A stretch of 64,000 nt of DNA. It comes from Candidatus Staskawiczbacteria bacterium RIFCSPHIGHO2_02_FULL_43_16. GTDB lineage: Bacteria > Patescibacteriota > Minisyncoccia > Minisyncoccales > Staskawiczbacteraceae. Made by a program: the position numbers and the translations under genes. Location of the stretch: assembly GCA_001821935.1 (NCBI GenBank), contig MHOU01000003.1, forward strand, positions 11,873 through 75,872. Direction: 5' to 3'. The notes under the pieces were generated by a model, which was not told where the DNA came from, did no database searches, and saw only the letters and a list, made by a program, of their open reading frames with translations. Below are positions 2,619 to 15,894 of this stretch, in pieces. The first letter of the stretch is position 1. Each line of letters begins with the position of its first letter.

Positions 2619-2690
2619 GGCCTAGTAGCAAAGTAGTAATGCAAGGGACTGCAAATCCCTTATACGTGGGTGCGATTCCCGCCTAGGCCT
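2619..2690 (+). tRNA. tRNA-Cys (GCA)
   Basis: Cloverleaf read by hand. Acceptor GGCCTAG/CTAGGCC. Anticodon stem AGGGA/TCCCT with loop CTGCAAA (anticodon GCA). T-arm contains GTTCGATTC-like loop (GCGATTC). Confidence 0.75.
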
Positions 2691-4485
2691 CAAGTTGTAA
2701 TTTTTGCCCGGGTGGCGGAAAGGCATACGCGCGACACTTAAAATGTCGTGAGTTTCGACTCATGTGGGTTCGAGTCCCACCCCGGGCACAAGGAGCAACA
2801 AAACGAGTTTCAAAACGGCTTTCAAGCGATTGGAAGCCGTTTTTAGCTTTAAAATCAAGTGTTTTGCCGGATAAATTGAGTTCGGAAAATACAATCTTGG
2901 CTAATTCCTCTTTTTCTTGCGGACTGGCTAAATGGTAGGTGGGAAGGGCTTCTTTTAGCAGTTCGGAAAGTTTTATCACTTCTTGGATAGTTTCTATCAT
3001 AGAAGCCCCGGAAGCCTGTTGTACATTATTTAATGCGTTCAAGCTAAGGTTCAAAGTTGCTTCTTCAGAGGCTAGTTTTTCCGGGCTATATGCACGAGAT
3101 TTAAGAAGCGACAATCTATTGGCGTCCATATAGGCTAAGTCTTCAAGGATTTTCTTTTTCTTGCGCTCAGCTTCTTCCAGGTGATTGGTGCGTTTTTTAT
3201 CCAATTCAACGGCATCAGTATTCGCTAGTTTATCCAAACCAGCAAGCTCGTCTTCTGTAAGCAAGAGTTTGCCCATGATTTCTGTAGTTTCTTTAGTAAG
3301 AAAATTCAAATTGAAGTTCTTATTGGGGTTAGTGCAACCCGGAGCACAGCGTGAACCAAAGTAGATAATCCCCTTTTTCACATAAGGAGTGTACAAGCGA
3401 CTACAGTCCGTACAACGTACTATTCCCCGAAATGGGTAATCAATTACTTTAATGTAGTGAGCACTCTTGTTGCTCTTTTTCAGTTGTGCTTGAACCCTAG
3501 CAAAGAGTTCAGGCTTAGCTAATCCTTCATGGCTGGTGCTCTTGATATACTGCCCATCATTACCTCGTATCATGCCCATATAGAACGGATTTATTAGGAT
3601 TTTATGAATACTGTTATAGGTGGGAATACGGGCTATTTGCTCAATTTTTGCCGGATCATCATCCCCATCATCCGCCAGCATTTCTTCTTTTGTTCGGTGC
3701 CGACGAGCAGGCACCATAGTGAATCCTTGCTCAATCGCCCATCTGGAAAGGTCCATCAAGCTCCATTCTCCGGTCGCATACATTTCAAAGAGCTTGGCTA
3801 TAATCGGCGCACGCTGGGGGTCTTTTGGCTTGTGGAGCATATTTCCCTCATTCAGATAGCCAACCGGCGCCTTATTAATACACAAGCCCGCCGCACGGCT
3901 TTTATGAATGGTTAGCATTACTTTTTCCCTAGTAACGCGGGAATGATGGATTGAAAATGTGCCTTCTATGTCCATCTGTAACTCGCCCGAACTTGTTTTA
4001 TCATAAGTAGCCAGCGCAAATTGTACATCAATTCCAGCTCTCATTAATTTTCGGAGTATGGTTTCGTCGCCCTTGTTTCTGCATGCTCTATCATAGCAAA
4101 GGAATATCACTCCTTTAAAATAGCGCTTGTTAAGCCATTCGGCCAACTTATAGAACTTGGGACGCTCAACGCGGTACTGGACGCTATTATTCGCCCCAAA
4201 CACCATGTCAAAGTCTTCCTTAAAGGCAGAGTGTTTTTCGGAAATAACTCCGTCCTTGATAAAGTTGTCCAGAGAAATGGGGGCAATCGGAATCTTTTTT
4301 ACGAAAGCGAACCTGGTATTTTCTGCCAGTTGGTATTTTATAGAATTTTTCTGATTATCTGAGTCGTCCGTGCTTTTACGGTTATAGATGAGGTAATAAT
4401 CACGGTATTTGCCAGCAATGATGTCTTTTTCTATTTGTGTAATTTCCATATGTTTATTTATGGTTAATATTATTTTACAAAACAC
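2683..4485 (-). CDS. Large serine recombinase (resolvase/invertase-family integrase); its 3' end runs antisense through tRNA-Leu and tRNA-Cys
   Basis: N-terminal resolvase domain with the catalytic Ser context (YNRKSTDDSDNQ…SIKYQ) and the DRxxR-like motif (FLCYDRACRN). Recombinase domain follows. Zinc-ribbon (CTDCSRLYTPY…CAPGC) and coiled-coil tail as in large serine recombinases. The last ~35 codons are the reverse complement of the two tRNAs. Confidence 0.85.
   Translation of the reverse strand: MFCKIILTINKHMEITQIEKDIIAGKYRDYYLIYNRKSTDDSDNQKNSIKYQLAENTRFAFVKKIPIAPISLDNFIKDGVISEKHSAFKEDFDMVFGANNSVQYRVERPKFYKLAEWLNKRYFKGVIFLCYDRACRNKGDETILRKLMRAGIDVQFALATYDKTSSGELQMDIEGTFSIHHSRVTREKVMLTIHKSRAAGLCINKAPVGYLNEGNMLHKPKDPQRAPIIAKLFEMYATGEWSLMDLSRWAIEQGFTMVPARRHRTKEEMLADDGDDDPAKIEQIARIPTYNSIHKILINPFYMGMIRGNDGQYIKSTSHEGLAKPELFARVQAQLKKSNKSAHYIKVIDYPFRGIVRCTDCSRLYTPYVKKGIIYFGSRCAPGCTNPNKNFNLNFLTKETTEIMGKLLLTEDELAGLDKLANTDAVELDKKRTNHLEEAERKKKKILEDLAYMDANRLSLLKSRAYSPEKLASEEATLNLSLNALNNVQQASGASMIETIQEVIKLSELLKEALPTYHLASPQEKEELAKIVFSELNLSGKTLDFKAKNGFQSLESRFETRFVAPCARGGTRTHMSRNSRHFKCRAYAFPPPGQKLQLEA
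2706..2788 (+). tRNA. tRNA-Leu (TAA), long variable arm
   Basis: Acceptor GCCCGGG/CCCGGGC. Anticodon stem CGACA/TGTCG with loop CTTAAAA (TAA). Long variable arm tgagtttcgactcat. T-arm GTGGGTTCGAGTCCCAC. Confidence 0.8.
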
Positions 4486-4775
4486 ACATCTTCTTCACTA
4501 ATTTCGACTTCGCAGAATGGGATTGGCGCACATTTGAAAATATTCCACATCTTGCCGCCAGAATATACATAAAGGTATTCCTCAGCAACTAGACGTTTGC
4601 GGATACGCCTTAATACACCGCCAAAAGCAGTGATATTTTTAGTGGCTTCATCATCAAATCCATTTTTAACGCTGATAGCACTATTTTCTATATTTTCATT
4701 CATAAGATTGGGAAATTTAGTATTATTATTACTAATATTACTAAAGTCCCTCACCGCCAATCGGTTAGCGAACAT
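4470..4775 (-). CDS. Hypothetical protein (start chosen at internal Met MFANR…; the ORF track gives 4470..4859)
   Basis: ORF on the element side of the recombinase. Using the longer start it overlaps the upstream ORF by 95 nt. No family recognised. Confidence 0.3.
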   Translation of the reverse strand: MFANRLAVRDFSNISNNNTKFPNLMNENIENSAISVKNGFDDEATKNITAFGGVLRRIRKRLVAEEYLYVYSGGKMWNIFKCAPIPFCEVEISEEDVCFVK

Positions 4776-5145
4776 CGGCTTTGGGAATAACCGGATACTG
4801 TAAGGTCTTGGAGCAACCACTGCTTCCAAAATGTGGGCAGCCGAAGAAAATTCCGGCATCTGCCCTCCTAGTTCGCATAAGCATCTTAACCTTATGGTCT
4901 GGGCATTCTGGGAAAGCCATAACCTCTTTGGGGTTTACTTGTCCACCCATGCTCTTTTCAACGACTTCAATCTGTTCTTTTATCTCTCGGTATAGTTTAA
5001 CGGCACCTTCAACACTTTCTTCATAAAGATTGACCATTATTGATGACCTGATAATTGTGCCATCACTTGCCCGATCTACGGAGTAGTTAACGTGGACTCT
5101 ATTATTTGGATCAAACATATTTTTATTTGATGTATTAAAAAACAC
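4765..5145 (-). CDS. Hypothetical protein with a degenerate topoisomerase-type zinc-ribbon-like C-terminus
   Basis: C-terminal CPDH…FFGCPHFGSSGC resembles the CPxCG…FxGCSxYPxC zinc-ribbon pattern. Otherwise unassigned. Confidence 0.4.
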   Translation of the reverse strand: MFFNTSNKNMFDPNNRVHVNYSVDRASDGTIIRSSIMVNLYEESVEGAVKLYREIKEQIEVVEKSMGGQVNPKEVMAFPECPDHKVKMLMRTRRADAGIFFGCPHFGSSGCSKTLQYPVIPKADVR

Positions 5146-5186
5146 TCCGGACTAGGGAGTGTTGATGATTATTAATCATTTAACGT

Positions 5187-5387
5187 CTATTTTGAACCGC
5201 CAGCCGGTTCACCTTGAACCGGCAGACGAGTAATAGTAATAACTCCTTGGCCGTATTTGACTTCGAACTTACTGCCAATAGAGAAATCTGCCTTGAGCAA
5301 AAAACTATTGGTAATCCTTAGCATAGGTTTGCTGTTATCATCCCCGGGAGCACGTGTGATGGTCATAACTCTTTTTATGTTATTCAT
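5187..5387 (-). CDS. AbrB/MazE/SpoVT-family (swapped-hairpin) DNA-binding protein
   Basis: 66 aa. MLRITNSFLLKADFSIGSKFEVKYGQGVITITRL fits the looped-hinge beta-barrel pattern of AbrB/MazE antitoxins and regulators. Confidence 0.5.
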   Translation of the reverse strand: MNNIKRVMTITRAPGDDNSKPMLRITNSFLLKADFSIGSKFEVKYGQGVITITRLPVQGEPAGGSK

Positions 5388-5608
5388 AATAATGTGAATG
5401 CTTGTGCCAGGCTGGTTCGACTAGCCAGCCAAAGAATATCAGTGGCGTTTTATTTAAAAATATTCCACTTATAAAAGTTGGTAGACCATGGTTGTGCTGA
5501 TGAATGAGTATTGGGCGATAGACATTGGGGGGTCGTTTAGCTAACTTCAAGGCGTGACTTGAGCCTCAGACTGAGAGGAACCGAGAGACGGTTATTTCAC
5601 CACAGGGA

Positions 5609-6076
5609 ATGGGACCCCTTTTGAAACGATCCCCGGTTCAGTCTGAAAATTTTGCGCATTTTTTTTCAAAACGAGGAAAACAGTGGGCTTGTTGTATGAT
5701 TTATGATATGGCATGGAAACCAGATATAGGGCATTTAAAAAGTAAAGAACTGCTAAATCGGCGGAGGTTTTATCGGTTACTTAGCGAACAAAGCAATTTC
5801 GTTGACCATGACTTGGCTCTGATTTTTTATACCGGCTTGCTGGTATTGGTGCATGAGGAACTGCGTCAAAATAAGTTTTGCAGATTACCGGGATTGGGGG
5901 ATTTTGTATCGATGGAACAGAAAAGACGGCCGGCGTGGTGCGGGAAAGCACATTTAGTAATTGAGCCAAGACAAATCATAAAATTTTACCCAGCTGAGCG
6001 CTTAAGACGATACTTTGGCAAGCGTCAAGGGTTTCCGCGCTATAGCGAGGTGATGCCGCCAAAACCAATCCAATAG
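5609..6076 (+). CDS. Divergent HU/IHF-like DNA-binding protein (start uncertain, possibly near 5712 at MAWKPD)
   Basis: C-terminal half CRLPGLGDFVSMEQKRRPAWCGKAHLVIEPRQIIKFYPAERLRR matches the HU/IHF arm pattern (GFGxF…RxGRNPxTGxxIxIxAxxVxxFxxGxxLK). It is divergently transcribed from the AbrB-like gene. Confidence 0.45.
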   Translation: MGPLLKRSPVQSENFAHFFSKRGKQWACCMIYDMAWKPDIGHLKSKELLNRRRFYRLLSEQSNFVDHDLALIFYTGLLVLVHEELRQNKFCRLPGLGDFVSMEQKRRPAWCGKAHLVIEPRQIIKFYPAERLRRYFGKRQGFPRYSEVMPPKPIQ

Positions 6077-6224
6077 CCCCTGTATATCGGAGATTTGAAG
6101 CCATCCTGCGTGCAGGGGAGTTGTGGATATTATCTAGGTATAGCTCAGTAAAAATGGCAATTTGACACAGCTTTGCTCGATTATTCAAAAGCATCCTCTG
6201 GTAGAACAAGCTTAAAAGTACACA

Positions 6225-6261
6225 AAAAGCCCCTATTTCCAGACTAAATATGGGCTTTTTG
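6225..6261 (+). terminator. Terminator-like hairpin after the HU-like gene
   Basis: AAAAGCCCC-ctatttccagactaaatat-GGGCTTTTT: stem plus 3' T-run. Confidence 0.4.
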
Positions 6262-6375
6262 CTTAAATCAAGAATAAAAAGGGACTGAGCTATGATTACA
6301 AATAAGGTATTGCTGAATAAAAAGCAATACGGTCGATAATGATCAAATCATTAACAATAAGTAGTAATAAAATCT

Positions 6376-6558
6376 ATGGATACAAAAGATATAAATGAAT
6401 TATTTATTTTTAGGCGTTCATGCGAAAAGTGTGATCATCAATGGTTTCCTCGTGCAAGTAGTCCCCAAAGGTGTCCACGATGCCAAACCTGGCTCGATAA
6501 GCCTAGTAGCAAGGGAGCGCCGAAAGTAAACGAAGTGCCTGCTGGTAAATTCCAGTAG
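6376..6558 (+). CDS. Small zinc-ribbon protein (CxxC…CxxC)
   Basis: 60 aa with CEKCDHQW…CPRCQTW. It lies just upstream of the replicase gene. Confidence 0.4.
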   Translation: MDTKDINELFIFRRSCEKCDHQWFPRASSPQRCPRCQTWLDKPSSKGAPKVNEVPAGKFQ

Positions 6559-6619
6559 CACTGTAAACAAAACCCCACGCTAGAAACGTGGGGCAATACT
6601 AATTAAATTAATCAATCAA

Positions 6620-9154
6620 ATGTATATAAATTATAGCACAATTCTGTGCGAAGAGATAGAGTTGAGTGAGTGGGTAAATATCAAAATAATTAACCCTTTT
6701 CTTGGCTTTAAAGAAACCTATGGACTTTCCGAGCCAAGCGATGAATACTGGGTAAATTGGCGTCTTGAGATGCGAAATGCCAAAAAAACAAAAGTGCCCT
6801 ATATGCCAAATGGGAAACTAGCAAGCACTACTGATCCGGTGACTTGGAGTACCTTTGACGAAGTAATAGCCGCACAAAGCCGTTTTAGCGGCATTGGTAT
6901 CGTGTTCACAGGTCTATTACTGGGAATAGATGTGGACAAATGCCTTGAAGGCAGGGATATAACGCACGAACAAAGGAAAAAGATAGCAGAACTTATCACA
7001 AGGGCAAATACTTATACAGAAGTATCACCATCTGGAACTGGTTTGCATCTTTTTCTCAAACTTACTGCTCCGCTTAATCTTAAGGCAAATCGCCATGGTA
7101 ATTTTGAGGCTTATACTTTAGGAAGGTACTTCACTGTGACGCAAAACTTCTACCAAGATATAAAGTCTGTTAGGCTAGTGACACCAGAGGAAGCTGAATC
7201 TTTGCTTTCAATCATTGGTTATCCTTGGGAAAAAGGCGAACAGCCCAAAAATACACTCCATAGCCCAACAAGCAAAGAGATTGAATTAAGCGACGATGTG
7301 GTTCTTCAAAAAATGTTTGCTTCTAAGAATGGTTCAGCTATCAAGTTGTTATACAACGGAGATACTTCAGAATTTGATGGAGATGAATCAGTGGCTGATG
7401 CTTCTCTCTGTTCACACCTTGCTTTTTGGGTCGGCAAGGATGCTTCTCGCATAGAATCTTTGTGGCTTGCTTCTCCGCTTGGCAACAGAGAAAAGACACA
7501 ACAGCGCAAGGATTACCGAGACCACACCGTCGAATTTGCTATACAACACTGTACAGGAGTATACGATAATTCGGTTTCTATGGAAAAAATAGAGGGAATG
7601 CTAGAGCAAATACCTGTTGACATGTCAAAATTGAAATTAATGGAGGTGTTGAGTCCCATTTTTCAGGCTCTTATCCATATTGAAAGGACAACTGCAGAAT
7701 TGTTCATTCTGAACAATATTAAAGAACACTTCAGTATCACCAAGGCGGACGCCCAGAAGTATATTCCCCATTTGAATAACCTAAGGTTAAAATCACTGGC
7801 GGCAGACAAAGAGGAGAGGGAAAAGGAAGAAAAACTACCACTGCTGGCTAGGGACATAGACTACGGAGAGGTATTTGATGCTATATCTGAAATAGGTATT
7901 ATCCATGAAAGTACGCTAAAAATAATCACAGCGGTCATTATCTCTTCCCAATTACGATGCAATCCTCCTTTGTGGTTATTTCTCATTGGAGTACCATCGT
8001 CGTTAAAAACCGAGCTTGTTGGTTTATTTAGCGCGACAGATGAAGTCTATACATTGGATACGCTTACAGAGAATGCGTTTGCTTCTGGGTTTGTGCCAAA
8101 AGACGGTAAAGAACCACAGGATTTACTGCCACTCATTGATAACAAGGCATTTATCATAAAGGATCTGAACACTCTCTTTTCATTGAACGAGGAAACGGTA
8201 AAAAAGATCCTTGGCGATCTGACAAGCATCTTTGACGGTAAATTCGAAAAGTTCACAGCCACAAGGGGACTGATTAGCTATAGCTCGTTGTTTTCAATGA
8301 TCGGATGCATCACGCCTTCAATTTTGATTAAACACTATAACTATGCGACACAGCTTGGCCCACGATTTTTGTTCCTGCGACTTCCGGAATTAGACAGTGA
8401 TGAAATGAACCAAAGTTTAGAGAACTTTTGGAATGAGAAAAACAGGAAAGAAAAAATCATAAAAACACGGCAAATAGTGTCCTCCTATTGCACTCAACTC
8501 ATCAAAAAAATCAAACAATACGAACCTGCTGATGAAACTAAGGAAATCCAGGATAAAATTAGTGATATTTCTCTGCTTATTTGCCGGGCTCGTGGCATTG
8601 CTATTACGCAAAAATCAAGTTTTACAGACGAAAAAACAGGGAAAAAGGTGGAATATTATGAAATAAATAACTTTCAGGTAGAGCAGCCCTGGAGAATAAT
8701 CAATCAGCTAAAGTCCTTACTTCAAATCTTGAGTTTTATCAACGGAAACGCTGGTGTGGGCGAAGATGAAATAAATGTTATCAGGCCTGTCATCCTATCA
8801 ACTATGCCGGTAGATAGGTCAGAAGTAATGGGTATTCTTGTGAAAACATGCGGACGTTCGGCAACTGAAATTGGCAAACAAGTCGGAAAATCAGGGAAAA
8901 CCGCGCGTAGAACCCTAAAAGAGTTAGAAGCACTTGGGCTTGTTGACTGGTATCAAGACCCAAGCAATACATCAGGAAAAGCCGCCAAATTATACTTTGT
9001 CTCTGATAAATTTGCTTCTATCCTTCAGGCACCCATGCCCTCCCCGGAGTGTCTGTCCCTTTCAAAGATTGTGGCTGACGTGAATACGGCGATTTTTGAC
9101 GAAGCAGAGTACGAAATAGAAGATACTAACCCCCAACTTCCTGTGAATGGTTAA
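6620..9154 (+). CDS. Prim-pol (archaeo-eukaryotic primase-fold) domain protein, with a primase C-terminal-like region, a degenerate P-loop segment and a C-terminal winged-helix; putative replicase of the element
   Basis: AEP motifs hhhDVD (GIDVDKC) and sxSGxGxH (VSPSGTGLHLFLK). A PriCT-like block follows (DASLCSHLAFWVGKDASRIESLWLASPLGNREKTQQRKDY). Then a GxxxxxKT-like segment (GVPSSLKTE). C-terminal HTH-like region GRSATEIGKQVGKSGKTARRTLKELEALGLV. Confidence 0.7.
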   Translation: MYINYSTILCEEIELSEWVNIKIINPFLGFKETYGLSEPSDEYWVNWRLEMRNAKKTKVPYMPNGKLASTTDPVTWSTFDEVIAAQSRFSGIGIVFTGLLLGIDVDKCLEGRDITHEQRKKIAELITRANTYTEVSPSGTGLHLFLKLTAPLNLKANRHGNFEAYTLGRYFTVTQNFYQDIKSVRLVTPEEAESLLSIIGYPWEKGEQPKNTLHSPTSKEIELSDDVVLQKMFASKNGSAIKLLYNGDTSEFDGDESVADASLCSHLAFWVGKDASRIESLWLASPLGNREKTQQRKDYRDHTVEFAIQHCTGVYDNSVSMEKIEGMLEQIPVDMSKLKLMEVLSPIFQALIHIERTTAELFILNNIKEHFSITKADAQKYIPHLNNLRLKSLAADKEEREKEEKLPLLARDIDYGEVFDAISEIGIIHESTLKIITAVIISSQLRCNPPLWLFLIGVPSSLKTELVGLFSATDEVYTLDTLTENAFASGFVPKDGKEPQDLLPLIDNKAFIIKDLNTLFSLNEETVKKILGDLTSIFDGKFEKFTATRGLISYSSLFSMIGCITPSILIKHYNYATQLGPRFLFLRLPELDSDEMNQSLENFWNEKNRKEKIIKTRQIVSSYCTQLIKKIKQYEPADETKEIQDKISDISLLICRARGIAITQKSSFTDEKTGKKVEYYEINNFQVEQPWRIINQLKSLLQILSFINGNAGVGEDEINVIRPVILSTMPVDRSEVMGILVKTCGRSATEIGKQVGKSGKTARRTLKELEALGLVDWYQDPSNTSGKAAKLYFVSDKFASILQAPMPSPECLSLSKIVADVNTAIFDEAEYEIEDTNPQLPVNG

Positions 9155-9178
9155 GAGCTTCATTGCTTAATATCTACC

Positions 9179-9210
9179 AAAAAAGCCACAATACTATCGT
9201 GGCTTTTTTG
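9179..9210. terminator. Bidirectional rho-independent terminator
   Basis: aaaaAAGCCACaatactatcGTGGCTTtttttgg lies between the convergent replicase (+) and the acidic protein gene (-). Confidence 0.6.
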
Positions 9211-9404
9211 GATGAGAATTATTTTCTAACTTTTACAATTAAATCCGTAACCATTTTATCTGTTTTCCTAACAAAAAAATTTATTTCTTTCAGTAGTTTT
9301 AATTTTTCTTTGGGAGAAACGCTGGCTTTATTTAATTTTTCCAATGCCTCTTTAATTGCTTTTTTTGTTAATGTTTTTGCCATAGTTTTTTATTTATTGT
9401 TAGT

Positions 9405-10037
9405 TTATTCTGTCTTATCTTTATACTTTTCATCAAGGTCATTTTTTAGCTTTTTTATTTGATTTTCAGTATCATCTTCTGATGGTAATGCCTCCTCTAC
9501 TTCCTCAACTGGTTGAGCCTCCACGACTTCGCCATCTTCTACTGGCACAGCCTCTTGCGCTTCATTATCTCTTTCAGCTCTTGCCATTTCTTGTTGTTGC
9601 GCCTTTCTTCCCCATCCTAAATAAGCCACGGCTTTGGCAATTCCCCAAAATACTACTCCGCCTAACACCGTGGTAGCCACTTCTTTAATATCTTTGTCGC
9701 CCGATGCCAATTCGCGAATACTTTCACCCACGGTTCCAGCCATAGCAATTCCCGCCAACATATTAACCATAGAATTGGCAGATACATAGTCCTTAATTTC
9801 TTTAATACCTGCCATTAGAACATTCTTTGCTTTTTCGGACAAACTTTCATCGCTTTGCAATTCTTCTAATTCGTCCAAATGCTCATTAAGCTCGCCGACA
9901 CCCTCTCGAAGTTCCGCTTGGACTTCCCTTATCTCCTCCTCTATGCGAGTTTCTTCTGCTTGTTCAATTCCTGCTTCCGCCACTTGTTCTTGTGGAGATT
10001 CTAATTCTTCGCGATTTAAGCCGTCTGGATTTTTCAT
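9405..10037 (-). CDS. Hypothetical acidic coiled-coil protein with a central hydrophobic segment
   Basis: 210 aa, strongly E/D-rich. Central MVNMLAGIAMAGTV…VVFWGIAKAVAYLGW looks like a TM or amphipathic segment. No family recognised. Confidence 0.5.
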   Translation of the reverse strand: MKNPDGLNREELESPQEQVAEAGIEQAEETRIEEEIREVQAELREGVGELNEHLDELEELQSDESLSEKAKNVLMAGIKEIKDYVSANSMVNMLAGIAMAGTVGESIRELASGDKDIKEVATTVLGGVVFWGIAKAVAYLGWGRKAQQQEMARAERDNEAQEAVPVEDGEVVEAQPVEEVEEALPSEDDTENQIKKLKNDLDEKYKDKTE

Positions 10038-10151
10038 ATCTTGATTTTAATTAATGGTATATTTTTTCTTTAAGTAATCATACATTTTAAAAAAGAAAAG
10101 AAAAAGACCTCGAGGGAGCAAAGGTGCTCTTTCGAGGTCATGTTTAGTGGG

Positions 10152-10805
10152 TTATTTCCCCCACTTTTTGTAGTGCTTGTCTTTGACGGCCTGTTCAACG
10201 AACGGCCACATAGCCAGTCCGCCTTGCACGAAACAGCAGAGGATAAGGTGAAGACGCAACTTCACCCCAAGCCACGCTTGGCCACTCATCGGGTACTCCT
10301 TCCGAGAGTCATTAAGTAACATCTCGCCACCCGCCTGAGCGATCTCATTGCGGACCTCGTCCTGAACGCCACGGCGCTCTTCTTCCAGCCATTTTGCCGG
10401 ATCGAAATCCTTGGGCGCCTTGAAGACGGTGATGCTGTAGGTGATGTGACTGGAAACAAAGTCCATCAGCCAGGAGAAGAAGCCGTATCCTCCGTAAGAA
10501 GGGTCATGAATCGTCTTTTCCACGATGCATCCCATGTTCTGGATGCCGAGACGGTTGAGCGTGTCGTTGAGGGTTCTGTCCCACAACGCACTCGTTTCTC
10601 CGAGCAAGACCCCCTGCCTGTCGAAGACATAGAAATCTCCCTGCGCCTTCACGGTGGCCAGATTCACTCTCGACACCTTGACTTCGCAGGTTTTCCTCTC
10701 TTTGACAATCCTTGTCAAAAAGGGAAACTCTTGGAAGAACGCGGCGATCTTCTCCCTACTCTGATGCTGACACATGACGCACCTCTTTCTGTGGCATCTC
10801 GCCAC
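10152..10805 (-). CDS. Hypothetical protein encoded in a GC-rich segment
   Basis: 217-aa ORF. Local GC is visibly higher than the flanks (for example ccacggcgctcttcttccagccattttgccggatcgaaatccttgggcgcc). No family recognised. Confidence 0.5.
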   Translation of the reverse strand: MARCHRKRCVMCQHQSREKIAAFFQEFPFLTRIVKERKTCEVKVSRVNLATVKAQGDFYVFDRQGVLLGETSALWDRTLNDTLNRLGIQNMGCIVEKTIHDPSYGGYGFFSWLMDFVSSHITYSITVFKAPKDFDPAKWLEEERRGVQDEVRNEIAQAGGEMLLNDSRKEYPMSGQAWLGVKLRLHLILCCFVQGGLAMWPFVEQAVKDKHYKKWGK

Positions 10806-10997
10806 ATTTGGGACTTTAGCATCTCGCCAAAGTCGGATGGATGCCTTTAGCTTCTCGCTAAGAGCAACGTTTCAGAAACTACTTATACCATACACTTTTT
10901 ACAGTTCATTGTCAAATTTTTCGTGTTCTATGCAGTAATTAAAAACCCCAAAAAAGCATCGTGCTTTTTCGGGGTAATGGTAGGCGAAAGTGATCAC

Positions 10998-11702
10998 CTA
11001 CTTTTTGGGGTTGGCTGTTTGTTGAGCCTTTTTGTGTGCTACGACTACTGCCATAGCACCTGGGTAAAAGATCCAAGCGCAGATCCATCCTATGGCCTCG
11101 AATACCTGGAAAACAGGTGACTTTGGCGCTGGCGGAATTTCATCGTCCGCCAGAAGGAATGTCGCCGGGTTCAATTGGTCGAAATTACCCGACTTCATTT
11201 CCATGATGAAACACAAGATGTAGAATACTCCGCCGACGAGTGCAGTCCACATCACCGGACCTCGAAGGTCACCTGTGATAAGGTTCCACACGCACATCAC
11301 GCTGGCCGCGATTCCTACTCCAAAGTAGAATAGGTGCAGGATTCCAGCAAAGCTCACTTTGTCGCGATCGGGAAATCCGTAATCGGGCTTGTGGGCGTTG
11401 CCAAGGCACATCTTCAGGAAGCCCAAGCCACTGACCACGACGATTGGCAGACTCCACCACAAGTTGGTGATGTCTTTGACCGCCAGATGCACAAAGGCGT
11501 TGGTAATCAGCAGAACTCCGATCCCGTCGCCCCAGGTCATTGTCCAGAAGTCTTGGATGTACAGGAACCTCTGCTTGGTCATCGGAATGAATGAGTTGCG
11601 CGACGGCAGATTTCTGTCCACCGCCTGCGCCAGAAGCATCACACCGATGCACGCGACATTGGCGACCATTACCGATGCAAAAATCAGCCAAGAAAATTCC
11701 AC
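10998..11702 (-). CDS. Hypothetical multi-pass membrane protein (GC-rich segment)
   Basis: Six or more hydrophobic helices (LIFASVMVANVACIGVMLLA, WWSLPIVVVSGLGFL, GILHLFYFGVGIAASVMCVW, WTALVGGVFYILCFIM, IGWICAWIFYPGAMAVVVA). Confidence 0.55.
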   Translation of the reverse strand: MEFSWLIFASVMVANVACIGVMLLAQAVDRNLPSRNSFIPMTKQRFLYIQDFWTMTWGDGIGVLLITNAFVHLAVKDITNLWWSLPIVVVSGLGFLKMCLGNAHKPDYGFPDRDKVSFAGILHLFYFGVGIAASVMCVWNLITGDLRGPVMWTALVGGVFYILCFIMEMKSGNFDQLNPATFLLADDEIPPAPKSPVFQVFEAIGWICAWIFYPGAMAVVVAHKKAQQTANPKK

Positions 11703-11803
11703 GATATCCTCCCTTAAAGAACGCCCTTAAACAGATTTAACACCAACAAGGTGAAAAAGAGCTGTTTATTTGTCAAAGTTCACTATACCCTAATTATAGC
11801 ATA

Positions 11804-12658
11804 TTATGGTATAATGTCAATAGTTGAGGGGTGAACGCCCTCTATCCAATTCCTTATGATATTTGCCGTGATTTTGGGTTTTTCTAACGGTAAAAGATGT
11901 CCGCAATTTTTCATAATTTCCAATGTGGAGCCAGATAACTGCTGGCTAAATTCTTGTATTGAATATAGGGGTGCAACTCGGTCTAATTCACCAGCGATTA
12001 TCAAAGATTTTATTTTTATTTTTTTACCAAATGGAATAAGGCTGAATTTATGAAATTCATCAAATAAATCATTGCTCACCTGCGGACTTAATTTTTTAAT
12101 TTCTTCAATATCCCTGATTATTATTTCTGTATGTATTCTTTGGTTGGCTGATTTAAAAATAATCATATCCCCTAATTTTTTACCAAAACCATTAGATATC
12201 ATTATTTTTTGCAAATATTCTGGTAGCATTTCTGTAATTTCAAAGTAGAGCGAAGCAATCCTATCAAGCAATCCCTCAACTTTTAAAACGGGGGCAATAA
12301 GAATAAGTTGCTTAACCTTTTTAGAATAATGATTAGTAAAAATTAAGGCAACTCTTGAACCAAAAGAATGACCAATAATAATCACTTCTTCCACAGACAA
12401 AATTTCCAAAAAATCATTCAACCAATCGCTATAATTTTTTAAATTATGTTTTTTATGCAAGGGTTCTGAAAACCCACAAGCAGGTAAATCGGGTATTATA
12501 AATCTGTAATCACCAAGGTCATTTGCTAAATCAAGCAATCCCCTGTGATTGCCAGGAAAGCCATGCAACAAAACTATGACCTTTTTATGCATATGGTTTT
12601 TCTGCCAATAAAAAAACTTCCTCCCGTTAATCGTAATTACGTTTTTTTTAAATTTCAT
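11804..12658 (-). CDS. Alpha/beta-hydrolase fold protein (start taken at MKFKK; the ORF track extends to 12844)
   Basis: HGFPGNHRGLLDLANDLGD… and the nucleophile-elbow motif IIGHSFGSRVALIF (GxSxG). Typical esterase/lipase/haloperoxidase-family layout. Confidence 0.7.
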   Translation of the reverse strand: MKFKKNVITINGRKFFYWQKNHMHKKVIVLLHGFPGNHRGLLDLANDLGDYRFIIPDLPACGFSEPLHKKHNLKNYSDWLNDFLEILSVEEVIIIGHSFGSRVALIFTNHYSKKVKQLILIAPVLKVEGLLDRIASLYFEITEMLPEYLQKIMISNGFGKKLGDMIIFKSANQRIHTEIIIRDIEEIKKLSPQVSNDLFDEFHKFSLIPFGKKIKIKSLIIAGELDRVAPLYSIQEFSQQLSGSTLEIMKNCGHLLPLEKPKITANIIRNWIEGVHPSTIDIIP

Positions 12659-12662
12659 TTTT

Positions 12663-12798
12663 GTCGCAGTGGATTTGGGAGTACAGAAAAGGCACCTCCC
12701 CTTGCCAATAACACCCTTTCGGATATTATCTCCTATCCTCGCGAATAGGAACCACTGCGACGTGTGGCAGGTAGAAATGCCATCTCTATGTCGCAGTG
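12663..12798. promoter_or_regulatory. Repeated 10-mer GTCGCAGTGG (two direct copies and one inverted copy) upstream of the hydrolase gene
   Basis: GTCGCAGTGG at 12663-12672 and 12789-12798; CCACTGCGAC at 12755-12764. The 12755/12789 pair forms a 10-bp stem with a ~24-nt loop. Possible operator or leader structure. Confidence 0.3.
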
Positions 12799-13059
12799 GT
12801 CTTTGCCATGCTCCGTAAAAATTTACAGAGTTTAGGCAATTCAATTATTAAATTGTTATCTTAATACTAACTCAAAATCATTAAAAAATAAAGAGGTTTG
12901 TATCATTAAAAAGCCCCACGGGATTGGGGACTTTTCACGATATTACTCCCGGATAGTAAGACTAGATAGTGCATTGATGCTATTTCTGATATTATGGATT
13001 TGAGGCAATAGTTCGGAAAGCCAACCTTCTTCGGCACTATTTTGTAGTAAAAAGGTCGG

Positions 13060-13563
13060 TTGAAGTTTAATAGCAAAAAAGAGATGAAATTACTTATTAG
13101 ATTAATTCCCTTGTGGATTATCCTTATTGCCACCTTGGTGCTGACATTTTGGTCAGTGCGGCAATTGGCCGTATCCGTTATAAAAACCACCACAGCCCCT
13201 GAAGCCGCTTCGGTTAAAATGGACCCGTACGCCGGAGGAATGGGCATGGGCCCAGGATATAGCAATTATTGTTTGACACCGCCCATGTACCCTGCGCTAT
13301 CTTCCGCCATGATGCCCGGAACGGTTATGACCAAAGAAGACAAGGCTGCCATGGAAAAGTACGAGAAAGAAATGCAAAAGTATAATGAAGAATACACTGC
13401 CGCTTGCAAGGCAGAACAGCAAAAGCAGGAAAAACTGAAAGAACGAGGGTTGAATTCAGCCTGGTTTTCAAGCGTAGCGGTGTATTCCATTCTTTTCTTA
13501 TTCGGAATATTCGCAACGGCTCTTACGTTATTGGTGATAAAAAAGAGTGAAACAGAGGGATAG
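13060..13563 (+). CDS. Hypothetical membrane protein (N- and C-terminal TM helices, Met/Pro/Gly-rich and coiled-coil middle)
   Basis: LIRLIPLWIILIATLVLTFWSV and AWFSSVAVYSILFLFGIFATALTLLVI. A strong terminator follows. Confidence 0.5.
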   Translation: MKFNSKKEMKLLIRLIPLWIILIATLVLTFWSVRQLAVSVIKTTTAPEAASVKMDPYAGGMGMGPGYSNYCLTPPMYPALSSAMMPGTVMTKEDKAAMEKYEKEMQKYNEEYTAACKAEQQKQEKLKERGLNSAWFSSVAVYSILFLFGIFATALTLLVIKKSETEG

Positions 13564-13573
13564 CTTGTAGGAC

Positions 13574-13608
13574 AAAAAAACCGGGCCGCCCAGCGGCCCG
13601 GTTTTTTT
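13574..13608. terminator. Bidirectional rho-independent terminator
   Basis: aaaaaaACCGGGCCGCccagGCGGCCCGGTttttttt between convergent genes. Confidence 0.75.
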
Positions 13609-14107
13609 AACTTTGCACGATTAACATAGTAGCCCTTCTTGCTCCAAATTCTATTGCTTTTTGTCTTCCCTCTTCTTTATTCGGAAAGAAAATATCCACT
13701 CGATTCTTGCCGGTATACTTTTTGTTCATCCTGTCTTCAACCACGAATTTCTTGTCTCCAAACAATTCGGGGATCATGACAATTGTTCCGAAGGGATAGT
13801 CGTTGGTAGCAATGAACCCGTCGGCCACGTGCTTCCCAGAGGCTGTTTCCCATTCCCTATCGTCAGTTTGATCTTTTGTGTCTGAATATCCGGTAAATAC
13901 CACGCCCTTTATAGTTTTTACCACTTCATAGTGAGATTTATCCAACTTGCAAATGGTAAGGTGTCCATTGTAGACCAAAGTGACTTTTGTGTCACTTGCG
14001 GTGTTATTAGGTTCGGCATGGGTAGTGTTTGGGGCTACGATGGCATATAAGGCGATTCCCACAATAAAGCCCATAAGGATAGATCTAATCAATAAAGATT
14101 TATTCAT
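13607..14107 (-). CDS. Secreted 3D-domain protein (YuiC/MltA-type lytic-transglycosylase-like fold)
   Basis: Signal-peptide-like N-terminus. C-terminal 3D-domain pattern …ASGKHVADGFIATNDYPFGTIVMIPELFGDKKFVVEDRMNKKYTGKNRVDIFFPNKEEGRQKAIEFGARRATMLI. Confidence 0.6.
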   Translation of the reverse strand: MNKSLLIRSILMGFIVGIALYAIVAPNTTHAEPNNTASDTKVTLVYNGHLTICKLDKSHYEVVKTIKGVVFTGYSDTKDQTDDREWETASGKHVADGFIATNDYPFGTIVMIPELFGDKKFVVEDRMNKKYTGKNRVDIFFPNKEEGRQKAIEFGARRATMLIVQS

Positions 14108-14305
14108 AAATTAGGCTTAATAGTATAAAATCCACTAAAAAATGCCCTTCTTTGAGCATGTCTTGATATTAGCATACTCAAGCACCTTTGTCAATAGCTA
14201 TCCCACATTTATCCGCAGGTGTCAAATAGGCGTTTTAGAGGGTAAAATGGCTCAAAAAACCCCAAAAAAAGAGCCTAAAAATAGGCTCTTTTTTGGGGTT
14301 TTGGT

Positions 14306-14379
14306 TGGAGCGGGTATGGGGAGTCGAACCCCACTCATTAGCTTGGAAAGCTAAGGTAATACCGATATACGATACCCGC
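14306..14379 (-). tRNA. tRNA-Gly (TCC), CCA encoded
   Basis: Minus-strand cloverleaf. Acceptor GCGGGTA/TACCCGC. Anticodon stem TTAGC/GCTAA with loop TTTCCAA. T-arm GGGGTTCGACTCCCC. 3' CCA present (TGG on the plus strand at 14306-14308). Confidence 0.75.
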
Positions 14380-14446
14380 CTGCGCCCGCCATATCGGGCT
14401 TCGGCGGGCAATGCCCACTAAGACCGCAAAGGAAGGGGCTCTTTTG

Positions 14447-14517
14447 TCGGGGTACTCGGATTCGAACCGAGATTAAGTCGTCCCAAACGACTCGTGCTGC
14501 CGTTACACTATACCCCG
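14447..14517 (-). tRNA. tRNA-Pro (TGG)
   Basis: Acceptor CGGGGTA/TACCCCG. Anticodon stem AGTCG/CGACT with loop TTTGGGA. T-arm TCGGTTCGAATCCGA. No CCA encoded. Confidence 0.75.
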
Positions 14518-14964
14518 TTTTGCTATCTTAGGTAATTTTTGAAACCGCTGATCGTGATGCCAAACCTGCCCATAATGTATTATTCTGTGACAATTAGCAC
14601 AGACAACAACACATTTTCCAATTTCTTTTTTCACTCTTTCTATCCCAAAATGATTATAGCGCGCAGATCCAATTGAGAACTCCTTATCATTGCCAGTGTG
14701 GTGAAAATCTAGGATTCGATGATCCTTTGTGCCACATTTTATGCACCCACTTTTTATCTTATACCCATCCAATATTTTTTGGTATTTTTCTACAAGCGCC
14801 TTCTTAGTTTTACCATAACAAAACCGACATTTTAAGCGACGGTAGATTTTATCGGGCGTTGAAAGGGCAACCCCAAAATCAGATTCAGGATAATATTGAC
14901 TGCAATATTTGCATAGCTTCATTAGTCTATCATAATATCTTTGGGAGCGGGAATCAAGGTGCAA
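14503..14964 (-). CDS. HNH endonuclease
   Basis: Cys-rich with C-terminal HNH motif (…VVVCANCHRIIHYG…) and zinc-ribbon CxxC pairs. The 3' end overlaps the tRNA-Pro 5' end by ~15 nt. Confidence 0.65.
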   Translation of the reverse strand: MHLDSRSQRYYDRLMKLCKYCSQYYPESDFGVALSTPDKIYRRLKCRFCYGKTKKALVEKYQKILDGYKIKSGCIKCGTKDHRILDFHHTGNDKEFSIGSARYNHFGIERVKKEIGKCVVVCANCHRIIHYGQVWHHDQRFQKLPKIAKRGIV

Positions 14965-15071
14965 ATTACCAAAAACTTAAAAGTAGAATCTGCTTAGGAT
15001 TATATCTCAAAAAATCTTCCTTGTCAAAGGCAAAAAATCATGATAACATCCAAAATAACCCCAGGGGATAT

Positions 15072-15143
15072 GCCCTCGTAGTTCAATGGACAGAACAGCG
15101 CTCTTCTAAGGCGCATATGTGGGTTCGATTCCTACCGAGGGCA
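15072..15143 (+). tRNA. tRNA-Arg (TCT)
   Basis: Acceptor GCCCTCG/CGAGGGC. D-stem GTTC/GAAC. Anticodon stem GCGCT/GGCGC with loop CTTCTAA. T-arm GTGGGTTCGATTCCTAC. Confidence 0.8.
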
Positions 15144-15160
15144 CATGGTTTAAAAATCAT

Positions 15161-15234
15161 GGCGGTCGTAGTGTAGTGGCCTAGCACAGCGCTCTGTGGC
15201 AGCGCTAGCGGGAGTTCGAATCTCCTCGATCGCC
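15161..15234 (+). tRNA. tRNA-His (GTG) with encoded G-1
   Basis: Extra 5' G then acceptor GCGGTCG/CGATCGC. Anticodon stem GCGCT/AGCGC with loop CTGTGGC (GTG). T-arm GGGAGTTCGAATCTCC. Discriminator C. Confidence 0.8.
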
Positions 15235-15240
15235 CATACC

Positions 15241-15270
15241 AAAAGCCGCCCCGTTCGCGGGGCGGCTTTT
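15241..15270 (+). terminator. Rho-independent terminator after the tRNA pair
   Basis: AAAAGCCGCCCCGttcgCGGGGCGGCTTTT. Confidence 0.75.
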
Positions 15271-15296
15271 GCATAGACAGGAGTATAAAAAAGTTC

Positions 15297-15815
15297 TTGA
15301 CATATCAAAAATATTTGTTAGAATATGATTGTCGCCCTTTTCCAACCCACAATCCAGCTACGGAGAATCACATGGTAAGTAAAATTTTTTCCGCGTCTGA
15401 ACAAAGAAAAGAAAGAAAGCTTGAAAGATTCATCAAGAGAAAGAACAAACTAATATCGGCTGCCCAACCGCCCTCCGGCAACACTAAAAATCCCAAGCCG
15501 TGGACATTTTTTTGCAGACTAAATGGCTTAGAAGAAGCACTGCCGCCAGACAAAGAAGGATTTGTGAAAAAACTCGCCCAAATCATGGCGAATGCCAACT
15601 ATCAAAACCTTAATCCCACTATCGTTTACAAGAAGCTTTGCGGGATTCTGGAAATGGAGGTGGCTCAACGGCAAATGATAGGCAAAGCCATAGACCATCG
15701 AGAGTGCAAAAAATGGTCTGTCGGAAAGCACCGCGTATTCTTTGCGGTGGATGAATCCAATCGTATCGTACGCATTTCATTTTTATGGAGAAAAGATGCG
15801 TACGGAGGGCACTAA
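15297..15815 (+). CDS. Protein with a C-terminal RelE/ParE-like toxin domain and a long basic N-terminal extension
   Basis: C-terminus …WSVGKHRVFFAVDESNRIVRISFLWRKDAYG fits the RelE/ParE pattern (yRiiYxvddexxxvxvlrighRkdxY). The N-terminal ~80 aa are unassigned. No separate antitoxin ORF is obvious. Confidence 0.4.
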   Translation: MTYQKYLLEYDCRPFPTHNPATENHMVSKIFSASEQRKERKLERFIKRKNKLISAAQPPSGNTKNPKPWTFFCRLNGLEEALPPDKEGFVKKLAQIMANANYQNLNPTIVYKKLCGILEMEVAQRQMIGKAIDHRECKKWSVGKHRVFFAVDESNRIVRISFLWRKDAYGGH

Positions 15816-15859
15816 CTTCCCAAGGCACCAACCGAAGTTGGTGTCTTTTTTTGTAAACT

Positions 15860-15891
15860 AAAAGCGTCGCGCCTTCGGGCGCGACGCTTTT
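15860..15891. terminator. Bidirectional rho-independent terminator
   Basis: AAAAGCGTCGCGCCttcgGGCGCGACGCTTTT between the RelE-like gene (+) and rny (-). Confidence 0.75.
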
Positions 15892-15894
15892 AGT

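Follow-up and report, generated by a model that had tools for sequence, protein, structure and literature searches.

Insertion at the 3′ end of tRNA-Leu(UAA)

We analyzed a stretch of 64,000 nucleotides (positions 11,873–75,872 of contig MHOU01000003.1; hereafter, the window) from a Candidatus Staskawiczbacteria bacterium, a member of the Patescibacteria/candidate phyla radiation (CPR) from groundwater of the Rifle aquifer. CPR hosts of this kind are ultra-small groundwater bacteria, and their mobile elements have barely been charted. In the window, genes for a short IF-2 (infB) and RbfA are followed by tRNA-Cys (2619–2691, plus strand) and tRNA-Leu(UAA) (2706–2789, plus strand), both predicted by ARAGORN, the latter also matching the Rfam tRNA model with 57 bits. 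Further right, housekeeping genes for RNase Y (rny), ClpP, and trigger factor (tig) are found. Between these flanks lie genes for a large serine recombinase, several small proteins, a replicase, and a hydrolase, together with the structured non-coding RNA LOOT. An earlier note on this DNA had described an integrative, plasmid-like element between housekeeping genes, rather than a prophage, extending from 2683 to 15830. The flanks and the kind of element held up, and the extent had to be corrected.

As a comparison set, we used 80 loci (designated with L numbers) found by an IF-2 scan of species-representative genomes, against which the window proteins were run by tblastn. The IF-2 matches were in Staskawiczbacteria and other Patescibacteria, with a best identity of 78%; an exact-sequence look-up with Rny returned zero records. 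In ca. 40 related genomes, the order infB–rbfA–(tRNA-Cys, tRNA-Leu)–[o167]–'3D' gene was contained within 1–2 kb, and none of the recombinase, replicase, and cargo genes was found between rbfA/the tRNA genes and the '3D' gene in these genomes. An rbfA gene followed by this tRNA-Cys/tRNA-Leu pair was also present in relatives. The closest relatives, found through o167 (L111, 75% identical; L112/L113, 68% identical), had a likewise uninterrupted order. When the left flank of the window was joined to its right flank, the product aligned colinearly with the intergenic DNA of the relatives' empty sites, which places the insertion at 2790–13037 (10,248 bp; GC content, 0.413).

At the left junction (attL; core GGCAC at 2785–2789), chromosome and element meet as …CCCCGGGCAC/AAGGAGCAAC, as judged from the empty sites of L012, L015, L020, L111, and L112/L113. 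At the right junction (attR; core GGCAC at 13033–13037), element and chromosome meet as …CTTCTTCGGCAC/TATTTTGTAGTAAAAAGGTCGG, where the homology of the right flank to the empty sites starts. The empty site of L112 reads …GGGCACACTATTTTTATAGTAAAAGGTCG, and those of L012 and L015 are similar. Only the 5-bp GGCAC was common to attL and attR, and a repeat scan revealed no long direct repeat. Serine recombinases exchange strands at a 2-bp crossover, and a long direct repeat is not expected of them; thus, the short shared sequence fits a serine recombinase. The reconstructed attB was GAGTCCCACCCCGGGCAC/TATTTTGTAGTAAAAAGGTCGG (…CCCACCCCGGGCACTATTTTGTAG…), whose left half is the 3′ end of tRNA-Leu(UAA), and the reconstructed attP was GCCAACCTTCTTCGGCAC/AAGGAGCAACAAAACGAGT (…CCAACCTTCTTCGGCACAAGGAGCAAC…). 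The tRNA-Leu(UAA) gene is intact after integration. The insertion is therefore polymorphic, being present in the window but absent from the ca. 40 relatives and from L111, L112, and L113, with a precise junction at a site that is conserved, and these alignments show an exact insertion at the extreme 3′ end of tRNA-Leu(UAA).

The earlier note had advised comparison with related genomes lacking the insertion, and this comparison defined the att junctions at 2789/2790 and 13037. It had also looked forward to a duplicate of the tRNA-Leu 3′ end on the far side, a test unsuited to a serine integrase; a 32-nt match to the tRNA-Leu T-arm at 15117–15148 was considered as an att site and rejected, being the T-arm of a genuine tRNA-Arg.

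Genes of the element

The recombinase gene (2683–4449 as called, 588 aa; 600 aa from a GTG at 4485; minus strand) lies against tRNA-Leu/tRNA-Cys, and its assignment in the earlier note to the large serine recombinases was confirmed by matches to Pfam Resolvase (PF00239; 31.5 bits, cut-off 23.3), Pfam Recombinase (PF07508; 41.1 bits, cut-off 21.1; residues 223–337, after the catalytic domain), and PHROG 95 'integrase' (E = 7e-44, aligned over residues 106–536). The YNRKS catalytic motif ('IYNRKST') and the DRxxR motif ('YDRACRN') were read in the translation, the former being present also in the homologue of L049. Pfam aligned only profile positions 48–143 of the catalytic domain, which contains an insertion. 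There was no match to PF13408; the translation shows a Cys-rich segment (…CTDCSRLYTPY…GSRCAPGC…) and also a long helical stretch rich in charged residues.

The recombinase open reading frame (ORF) leaves the element on the minus strand and runs through tRNA-Leu into tRNA-Cys, so that its last 35 codons (2683–2789) are chromosomal sequence antisense to both tRNA genes. Translation over the reconstructed circle junction yielded a recombinase of 596 aa with the C-terminus …CAEEGWLSELLPQIHNIRNSINALSSLTIRE and a stop codon at 12945–12943, behind which a terminator scan and folding placed a terminator-like hairpin with a T-run (12929–12914, minus strand). This stop and terminator at 12914–12945 put attP inside the 3′ coding end of the recombinase gene; as reconstructed, the native end of the gene is found at the opposite side of the integrated element. 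In six islands (the window, L049, L092, L094, L097, and L098), the recombinase ORF extends into the target gene. The recombinase of L049 (42% identical) also lies at tRNA-Leu and ends in antisense tRNA sequence; the ORFs of L092 and L094 run into tRNA-Asn, and those of L097 and L098 overlap the start of ychF. This recurrence in related elements marks the gene-splitting layout as a feature of design and not as damage. Since the similarity between the recombinases of the window and L049 fades ca. 10 residues before the junction, the swapped tail may be functionally neutral.

The replicase (6620–9154, plus strand; 844 aa) consists of a primase-polymerase with a helix-bundle domain (residues ca. 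43–320), a helical linker, a P-loop ATPase (GVPSSLKT/IIKDL), and a C-terminal winged helix. The earlier note had read it as a prim-pol/PriCT/P-loop/wHTH replicase, and the protein gave matches to Pfam Prim-Pol, NrS-1 HBD (PF22763), and winged helix-turn-helix (wHTH) families, to the NrS-1 primase-polymerase in the Protein Data Bank (PDB; 7rr3/6k9a/6a9w/7ola; residues 43–319, E ~3e-22), and to PHROG primases (down to E = 9e-63). The DxD (IDVD) and SPSGxGLH (SPSGTGLH) motifs are kept. The C-terminal 500 residues gave no PDB sequence match. In this half, G137, P139, S140, K143, T144, and E145 (GVPSSLKTE) and K194, D195, and L196 (IIKDL) were invariant in 27 replicase homologues, and these residues look like Walker A and B motifs. 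An AlphaFold (AF2) model (predicted local distance difference test score, 74) gave weak Foldseek matches to MCM subunits, Cdc6/Orc1, BchI, and Rep40 of adeno-associated virus, with MarR-type winged helices at the end. With moderate confidence, the C-terminal half can be read as an ATPase of the AAA+/SF3 type with a winged helix behind it.

Phage and plasmid collections contained relatives of the N-terminal third only, the ATPase–wHTH half having no counterpart there. The C-terminal half is 62–71% identical to proteins with a different PrimPol N-terminus, and all replicase homologues with a named organism are from Patescibacteria. A scan of viral contigs (IMG/VR) revealed no relative of the replicase. 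Two further proteins were observed alongside. The same genome encodes P0033 (A3C50_03000), a further protein in which an NrS-1-type primase is joined to an AAA_25 ATPase (55% identical over the N-terminal third), so that a second such element is probably present elsewhere in the genome. P0020 (1413 aa) combines a homologue of the ATPase–wHTH half with a PrimPol domain and a family A DNA polymerase that has a 3′-5′ exonuclease domain.

Five small proteins are encoded between the recombinase and the replicase. A 77-aa ORF (4470–4703, minus strand) directly upstream of the recombinase gene is a candidate accessory or directionality factor; it had no hidden Markov model (HMM) match, and homologues occupy the same place in L091/L092 (40% identity) and L049. 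Small ORFs were also found at the equivalent place in L094, L097, and L098, that of L098 being an HTH_17 protein. The gene call at 4765–5118 (minus strand) encodes a Cys-rich, Zn-finger-like protein of 117 aa without an HMM match. A small SymE/AbrB-like protein (5187–5387, minus strand; Pfam SymE_toxin, E = 0.11, sub-threshold), a candidate regulator, is encoded divergently from an HU/IHF-like protein (5696–6076, plus strand), a candidate architectural factor that matched Pfam Bac_DNA_binding (E = 0.0021; 18.7 bits, below the cut-off of 22.4) and PHROG 379 'DNA binding protein' (E = 0.0025). A 60-aa Zn-ribbon protein (6376–6558, plus strand; weak Zn-ribbon Pfam matches, E ~0.04) precedes the replicase, and a 58% identical homologue is encoded at the equivalent position in the sibling element L091/L092/L093. 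Of the labels given to small proteins in the earlier note, HU-like, AbrB-like, Zn-ribbon, and HNH thus received weak, sub-threshold support, and '3D-domain' and 'RelE-like' received none from HMMs.

The four cargo genes of the element are all on the minus strand. The alpha/beta hydrolase (11804–12592; 262 aa as called; GC content, 0.35) was recognized as such already in the earlier note and matched Pfam Abhydrolase_1 (2.6e-28). An acidic coiled-coil protein of 210 aa with a hydrophobic central segment (9405–10037) had only matches of the low-complexity type; PADLOC matches to LeoBC and BrxC, which would have made it a defense gene, were rejected because they cover the low-complexity acidic coiled coil. 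The protein o217 (10152–10775; 207–217 aa; GC content, 0.53) has no assigned function and is rare, with 21 clusters at E ≤ 1e-3 among 1.84 billion representatives. The small integral membrane protein mem234 (10998–11702; GC content, 0.52) had 61 homologues, mostly of ca. 180 aa, of which the named ones belong to the Staskawiczbacteria/Patescibacteria group and are annotated 'predicted small integral membrane protein'; proteins of this type are common in Patescibacteria. A perfect sigma70-like promoter (11820→11793) precedes mem234, and terminator-like hairpins were found at 10106–10139 and 10975–10945. The earlier note had regarded o217 and mem234 as a nested GC-rich two-gene segment. Their GC contents do exceed that of the element (0.41), but the nested status is compositional only because no variant without the pair was found among the contigs compared.

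Related elements and LOOT RNA

For each of the replicases P0002, P0003, P0004, and P0009 (50–65% identity), a small ORF and a serine recombinase come next, at the edge of the island, and these islands abut tRNA-Asn or ychF. The Rifle sibling L091/L092 has in common with the window element the 60-aa Zn-ribbon ORF (58%) and the small ORF before the recombinase (40%). In L049, the recombinase (42% identical) and the small ORF are common to both elements, but the replication protein is of a different, wHTH type; in L056, a recombinase at tRNA-Leu lies beside an AAA_25-type ATPase. The module combinations of L049 and L056 indicate that integration and replication modules have been reshuffled. The tRNA-Leu(UAA) site after rbfA is also used in L049, L056, L061, and L070, with a recombinase in the equivalent place and orientation, and it is thus a repeatedly used integration site. 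Cargo is wholly different between the elements. The relative L094 carries a DUF87/FtsK/TrwB-like ATPase. Taken together, the comparisons of gene order and sequence show that a family of such modules exists; text searches of the literature found no description of it.

One member has additional genes. The island of L098 with a related replicase and recombinase also bears a bAvd-like gene and a reverse transcriptase gene (1206–2590), followed by an AAA ATPase and an S8 peptidase. The pair suggests a diversity-generating retroelement.

LOOT RNA (Rfam RF03000) was found in the window at 12707–12838 on the minus strand by cmscan, with 58.3 bits against a gathering score of 46.4. The match is full-length (model positions 1–121 of 121), with the conserved single-stranded blocks and hairpins, and the minimum free energy of the region had a z-score of −6.7 relative to shuffled controls. 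A self-built covariance model detected the same locus with 36 bits; it is less sensitive than the Rfam model and missed the LOOT of L098. In the window, LOOT lies 115 nt upstream of the hydrolase gene on the shared strand and ca. 200 nt from attR.

In ca. 540 kb scanned with the Rfam model plus 1.36 Mb scanned with the self-built model, LOOT was found six times, each time in mobile-element DNA, and none of the conserved chromosomal parts of the scanned loci contained it. Besides the window, the positions were 17122–17241 in L056, 7039–7157 in L091, 8739–8872 in L098, 14099–14216 in L032, and 2852–2973 in L023. LOOT lies inside recombinase islands in the window, L056, L091, and L098. A serine recombinase gene was ca. 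1–8 kb away at five of the six loci, including L032 (563 nt) and the window as integrated (7.7 kb). The sixth LOOT, in L023, lies in a prophage-like region beside terminase-like, small-terminase-like, HTH_Tnp_1_2, and ParB-methylase genes. Each of the six has an ORF 34–115 nt downstream on its own strand, with no homology among these ORFs. The sequence AACAATTTAATAAT immediately precedes LOOT in the window, L056, and L091, and LOOT is followed by a GC-rich stretch and then T's. By this arrangement, LOOT may be a small RNA transcribed on its own or a leader that contains a terminator; both fit. Six matches to the conserved 5′ block of LOOT were found in viral contigs, but Rfam recognized none of them as LOOT.

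The Rfam type of LOOT is 'sRNA', and the searchable literature contained no function or genetic context for it. LOOT reportedly originates from the 2017 motif survey of Weinberg et al., the text of which (PMC5737381) has no description of LOOT. Compared with the Rfam entry, what is seen here is a full-length match located in Patescibacteria mobile elements. The placement of all six instances in mobile DNA makes the function of LOOT testable. A bolder proposal, which we advance tentatively and hold to be doubtful as a whole, is that the islands form a Patescibacteria-specific serine-recombinase family in which the exchange of the gene tail, with loss of the terminator, at an attP within the gene could act as an inbuilt switch from the integrated to the excised state and back, and that LOOT might have a function within the family, for example, in controlling the cargo gene next to it or the life cycle of the element. 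If true, this would explain the genetic context of LOOT, an RNA family otherwise known only by its structure.

In L032, two long inverted-repeat pairs within 12898–16293 meet at 14293–14563. The first (12898–13016/14293–14411; 119 nt, 100% identical) and the second (14429–14563/16159–16293; 135 nt, 98% identical) differ in what they enclose: one brackets LOOT and a 286-aa gene, and the other most of the serine recombinase gene. The repeats may represent a switch inverted by the recombinase, or they may be an artefact of assembly.

Nature of the element and its chromosomal surroundings

From the junctions and the gene content, 2790–13037 is probably a 10.25-kb integrative, plasmid-like ('cryptic') element that owes its place at the 3′ end of tRNA-Leu(UAA) to its own large serine recombinase. 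In the mechanism we propose, the recombinase would bring attP of the circle together with attB, which is located at the tRNA-Leu 3′ end, and exchange strands in the short core (GGCAC), leaving the tRNA intact. Integration would replace the last 31 codons of the recombinase gene and its terminator with 35 codons of antisense tRNA. Excision, probably aided by the conserved small ORF upstream of the recombinase gene, would restore the circle, which would be copied by its own replicase (NrS-1-type primase-polymerase, P-loop ATPase, and winged helix). The HU-like, SymE/AbrB-like, and Zn-ribbon proteins may act as regulators or architectural factors, and the remainder would be cargo: the acidic coiled-coil protein, o217, the membrane protein, the hydrolase, and LOOT with its own promoter-like sequence. 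Excision is plausible because the ORFs and catalytic motifs are intact. Present-day excision and replication, the roles of the small proteins, and a route of cell-to-cell transfer are what we infer from this gene set.

No capsid, portal, terminase, or tail genes were found among the element ORFs with Pfam and PHROGs, in agreement with the earlier note, and Pfam, PHROGs, and PADLOC revealed no conjugation or virion genes among the listed element ORFs (a set that excludes the 54-aa ORF at 9219–9383). Pfam likewise detected no relaxase, type IV secretion, or FtsK-like transfer ATPase gene in the window element. Judged by its genes, the element is not a prophage, because structural genes are absent, nor an integrative and conjugative element (ICE), an integrative and mobilizable element, or an actinomycete ICE (AICE), because relaxase, secretion, and FtsK-type genes are absent.

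The closest described class is that of the cryptic integrated mobile genetic elements encoding archaeo-eukaryotic primases (AEP) of Kazlauskas et al. (2018; PMC5862659). These elements, like that of the window, have a primase-polymerase fused to replication domains, an integrase at the edge, often a tRNA gene as the site, and no conjugation or virion genes. The features of their class iii were found here, namely, an AEP primase-polymerase with intact motifs and fused replication domains, and no conjugation or virion genes. The window element differs in its NrS-1-type primase with a helix bundle, in an ATPase–wHTH half that occurs only in Patescibacteria-named proteins, and in lacking a long direct repeat; moreover, it is from Patescibacteria, whereas the survey (PMC5862659) has no mention of Parcubacteria or candidate phyla. 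The replicase resembles the primase-polymerase of phage NrS-1 (6a9w, 6k9a, 7rr3, and 7ola) over its N-terminal ca. 280 residues, whereas the helicase part of NrS-1 has no sequence counterpart in the C-terminal 500 residues of the replicase, for which only weak AAA+/MCM-like fold matches were obtained.

Large serine integrases of the phiC31, Bxb1, and A118 type are composed of resolvase and recombinase domains and a Zn-ribbon with a coiled coil, and their attB and attP share minimal identity. The window recombinase is similar in having resolvase and recombinase domains and site specificity with minimal att identity, and its Cys-rich and charged helical stretches may correspond to the Zn-ribbon and coiled coil; it differs in having no close relative with a solved structure, an insertion in the catalytic domain, and attP in its own 3′ coding end. 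Location of attP inside the integrase gene, with alteration of the 3′ part of the ORF upon integration, is known from the SSV1-type archaeal integrases and intP of Myxococcus phage Mx8, which are tyrosine recombinases. In contrast, the window enzyme is a serine recombinase, and only the last 31 codons and the terminator are swapped, ca. 10 codons past the last conserved segment. AICEs use tyrosine integrases and an FtsK-like transfer protein. Unlike them, the window element has a serine recombinase and no FtsK-like ATPase, although the relative L094 has the DUF87/FtsK/TrwB-like protein. The pSAM2-type actinomycete ICEs (PMC2440964) are 10–17 kb long, use a tRNA gene, and have integration and replication modules; in size, tRNA-gene site, and combination of these two modules, the window element is like them.

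Several observations weigh against a mobile element of this kind. Ca. 23 contigs with identical RbfA, ca. 23 with identical o167, and 22 with identical hydrolase all represent the integrated form with ca. 100% identity, and no empty site or circular form in the source population was present among them. Tandem-repeat and repeat scans revealed no origin of replication or iterons, and no recognized directionality factor was found. No Foldseek match of the replicase model reached E ≤ 1e-3, the ATPase call resting on motifs and weak folds, and the small-protein annotations are sub-threshold. The average GC content does not look foreign (0.413, against 0.426 for the window). Composition is a poor marker of foreignness here, because GC content swings across the window, from 0.34 to 0.51 in 1-kb windows over 20–64 kb and down to 0.27 in 600-bp windows.

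A rival reading is an immobilized, possibly domesticated remnant that was once inserted by the recombinase and is now an ordinary genomic island without excision or replication. Every assembled copy, from many Rifle samples, is integrated and essentially identical, with neither an empty site nor a circle junction seen, and the integrated recombinase gene lacks its native 31-codon tail and terminator. All ORFs are intact, however, and the catalytic motifs of the recombinase and primase-polymerase are kept; rare excised forms collapse in assemblies, so that their absence is weak evidence, and the gene-splitting architecture recurs in related elements. We therefore judge this remnant to be the less likely state, though one with a real share of probability. 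Two junction scans of metagenome contigs of the Joint Genome Institute, one with a degenerate pattern for attL/attR/attB/attP and the other with patterns for attL and attB, gave zero matches; because the attL control, known in L002 and L003, was also missed, the scanned collection evidently lacks these records and the scans say nothing. The short contigs L118/L119, with a recombinase-like ORF upstream of the hydrolase gene, were considered as a circle junction and rejected, being colinear with the integrated form by BLAST.

A phage satellite (of the P4 type or like a phage-inducible chromosomal island) or a strongly reduced prophage, dependent on a helper phage of the same host for packaging and transfer, would share the size (ca. 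10 kb) and the layout of integrase, small regulators, primase-type replicase, and a few unknown genes. An integrase and a primase-type replicase do occur together on this ca. 10-kb island, the nearest annotated relatives of the primase-polymerase are siphovirus 'primase/helicase' genes and phage NrS-1, and LOOT, as a component in common with a phage-like region, lies beside terminase-like, small-terminase-like, and ParB-methylase genes in L023. On the other hand, Pfam and PHROGs revealed no capsid, terminase, portal, tail, or known capsid-redirecting genes, and no PHROG match in the element corresponded to helper-hijacking genes (capsid-size redirection, small terminase, and helper-sensing regulators). 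The lack of a replicase relative in the IMG/VR scan and of a counterpart of the ATPase–wHTH half in phage and plasmid collections also speaks against a satellite, which we hold to be improbable. Least credible by far is the larger unit of the earlier note, a single element of 11–13 kb running from the recombinase to the 'RelE-like' gene and bounded by tRNA clusters. In its favor, the HNH gene (14503–14964) and o172 (15297–15815) are variably present, so that some non-core DNA does occur as far as rny. However, the insertion stops at 13037, tRNA-Leu is directly followed by o167 and the '3D' gene in the ca. 40 relatives, and the tRNA-His/Arg/Pro/Gly cluster, which the note had taken as the far boundary, is chromosomal and adjoins rny in L012, L018, L020, and L037. 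Conserved DNA separates the HNH and o172 insertions from the element, and the empty-site alignments refute the larger unit. The '3D' gene, listed by the note among the accessory genes, is thus a conserved chromosomal gene.

Under the preferred reading, that of an integrative, plasmid-like element at 2790–13037, the kind of element is known; islands with an integrase and a primase in tRNA genes are common in other bacteria, and their biology is not surprising. By our text searches, this family, including its LOOT RNA, was previously undescribed in these bacteria. The element is precisely delimited; attB and attP can be reconstructed for its native serine integrase, and it has a native replicase module. 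In our view, a native integrase with defined att sites and a replicon would be useful to start from in developing genetic tools for such bacteria. Follow-up is merited for LOOT RNA and for the att site that lies within the recombinase gene.

To the right of the element, o167 (13084–13563) and the '3D' gene (13607–14107) are the conserved chromosomal neighbors of tRNA-Leu in relatives; the '3D-domain' motif was read by eye, and HMM searches gave zero matches for it. They are followed by tRNA-Gly(UCC)/tRNA-Pro (14306–14517, minus strand) and tRNA-Arg(UCU)/tRNA-His (15072–15235, plus strand), predicted by ARAGORN. The small, Cys-rich HNH-like gene (14503–14964, minus strand; HMM E = 0.49, sub-threshold) is encoded between both tRNA pairs, in L037 (68% identity) as well as in the window. 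L012 lacks it, and the gap from tRNA-Arg to tRNA-Pro is only ca. 75 nt there. A ca. 650-bp stretch between tRNA-His and rny (15236–15894) holds o172 (15297–15815, plus strand), the C-terminus of which has a RelE/ParE look by eye without an HMM match; o172 is lacking in L012 and L037, where tRNA-His abuts rny. By this distribution, the HNH gene and o172 are separate, small insertions that vary by lineage and lie outside the element, rather than accessory genes of it as the earlier note had it, and the HNH-like gene looks like a free-standing, variably present endonuclease gene independent of the element. The strong terminator that the note had placed at 15860 corresponds to a perfect 20-nt hairpin at 15854–15897. 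Elsewhere in the window, the GC content was 0.27–0.36 at 22–24 kb and 0.34 and then 0.51 at 43–45 kb.

The segment tRNA-Arg(CCU)…infB–rbfA–tRNA-Leu–(element)–o167–'3D' is inverted in this genome relative to L012, L018, L020, L037, and L059, the order being D′ B C A′ here and A B C D in the relatives. The breakpoints, at 14107–14306 of the window and at 4098–4171 of L001 (a position upstream of the window), fall at two oppositely oriented tRNA-Gly genes (UCC and GCC); the positions compared in L012 were 5785–5858 and 14811–14883. This position of the breakpoints suggests that the inversion arose by recombination between both tRNA-Gly genes.

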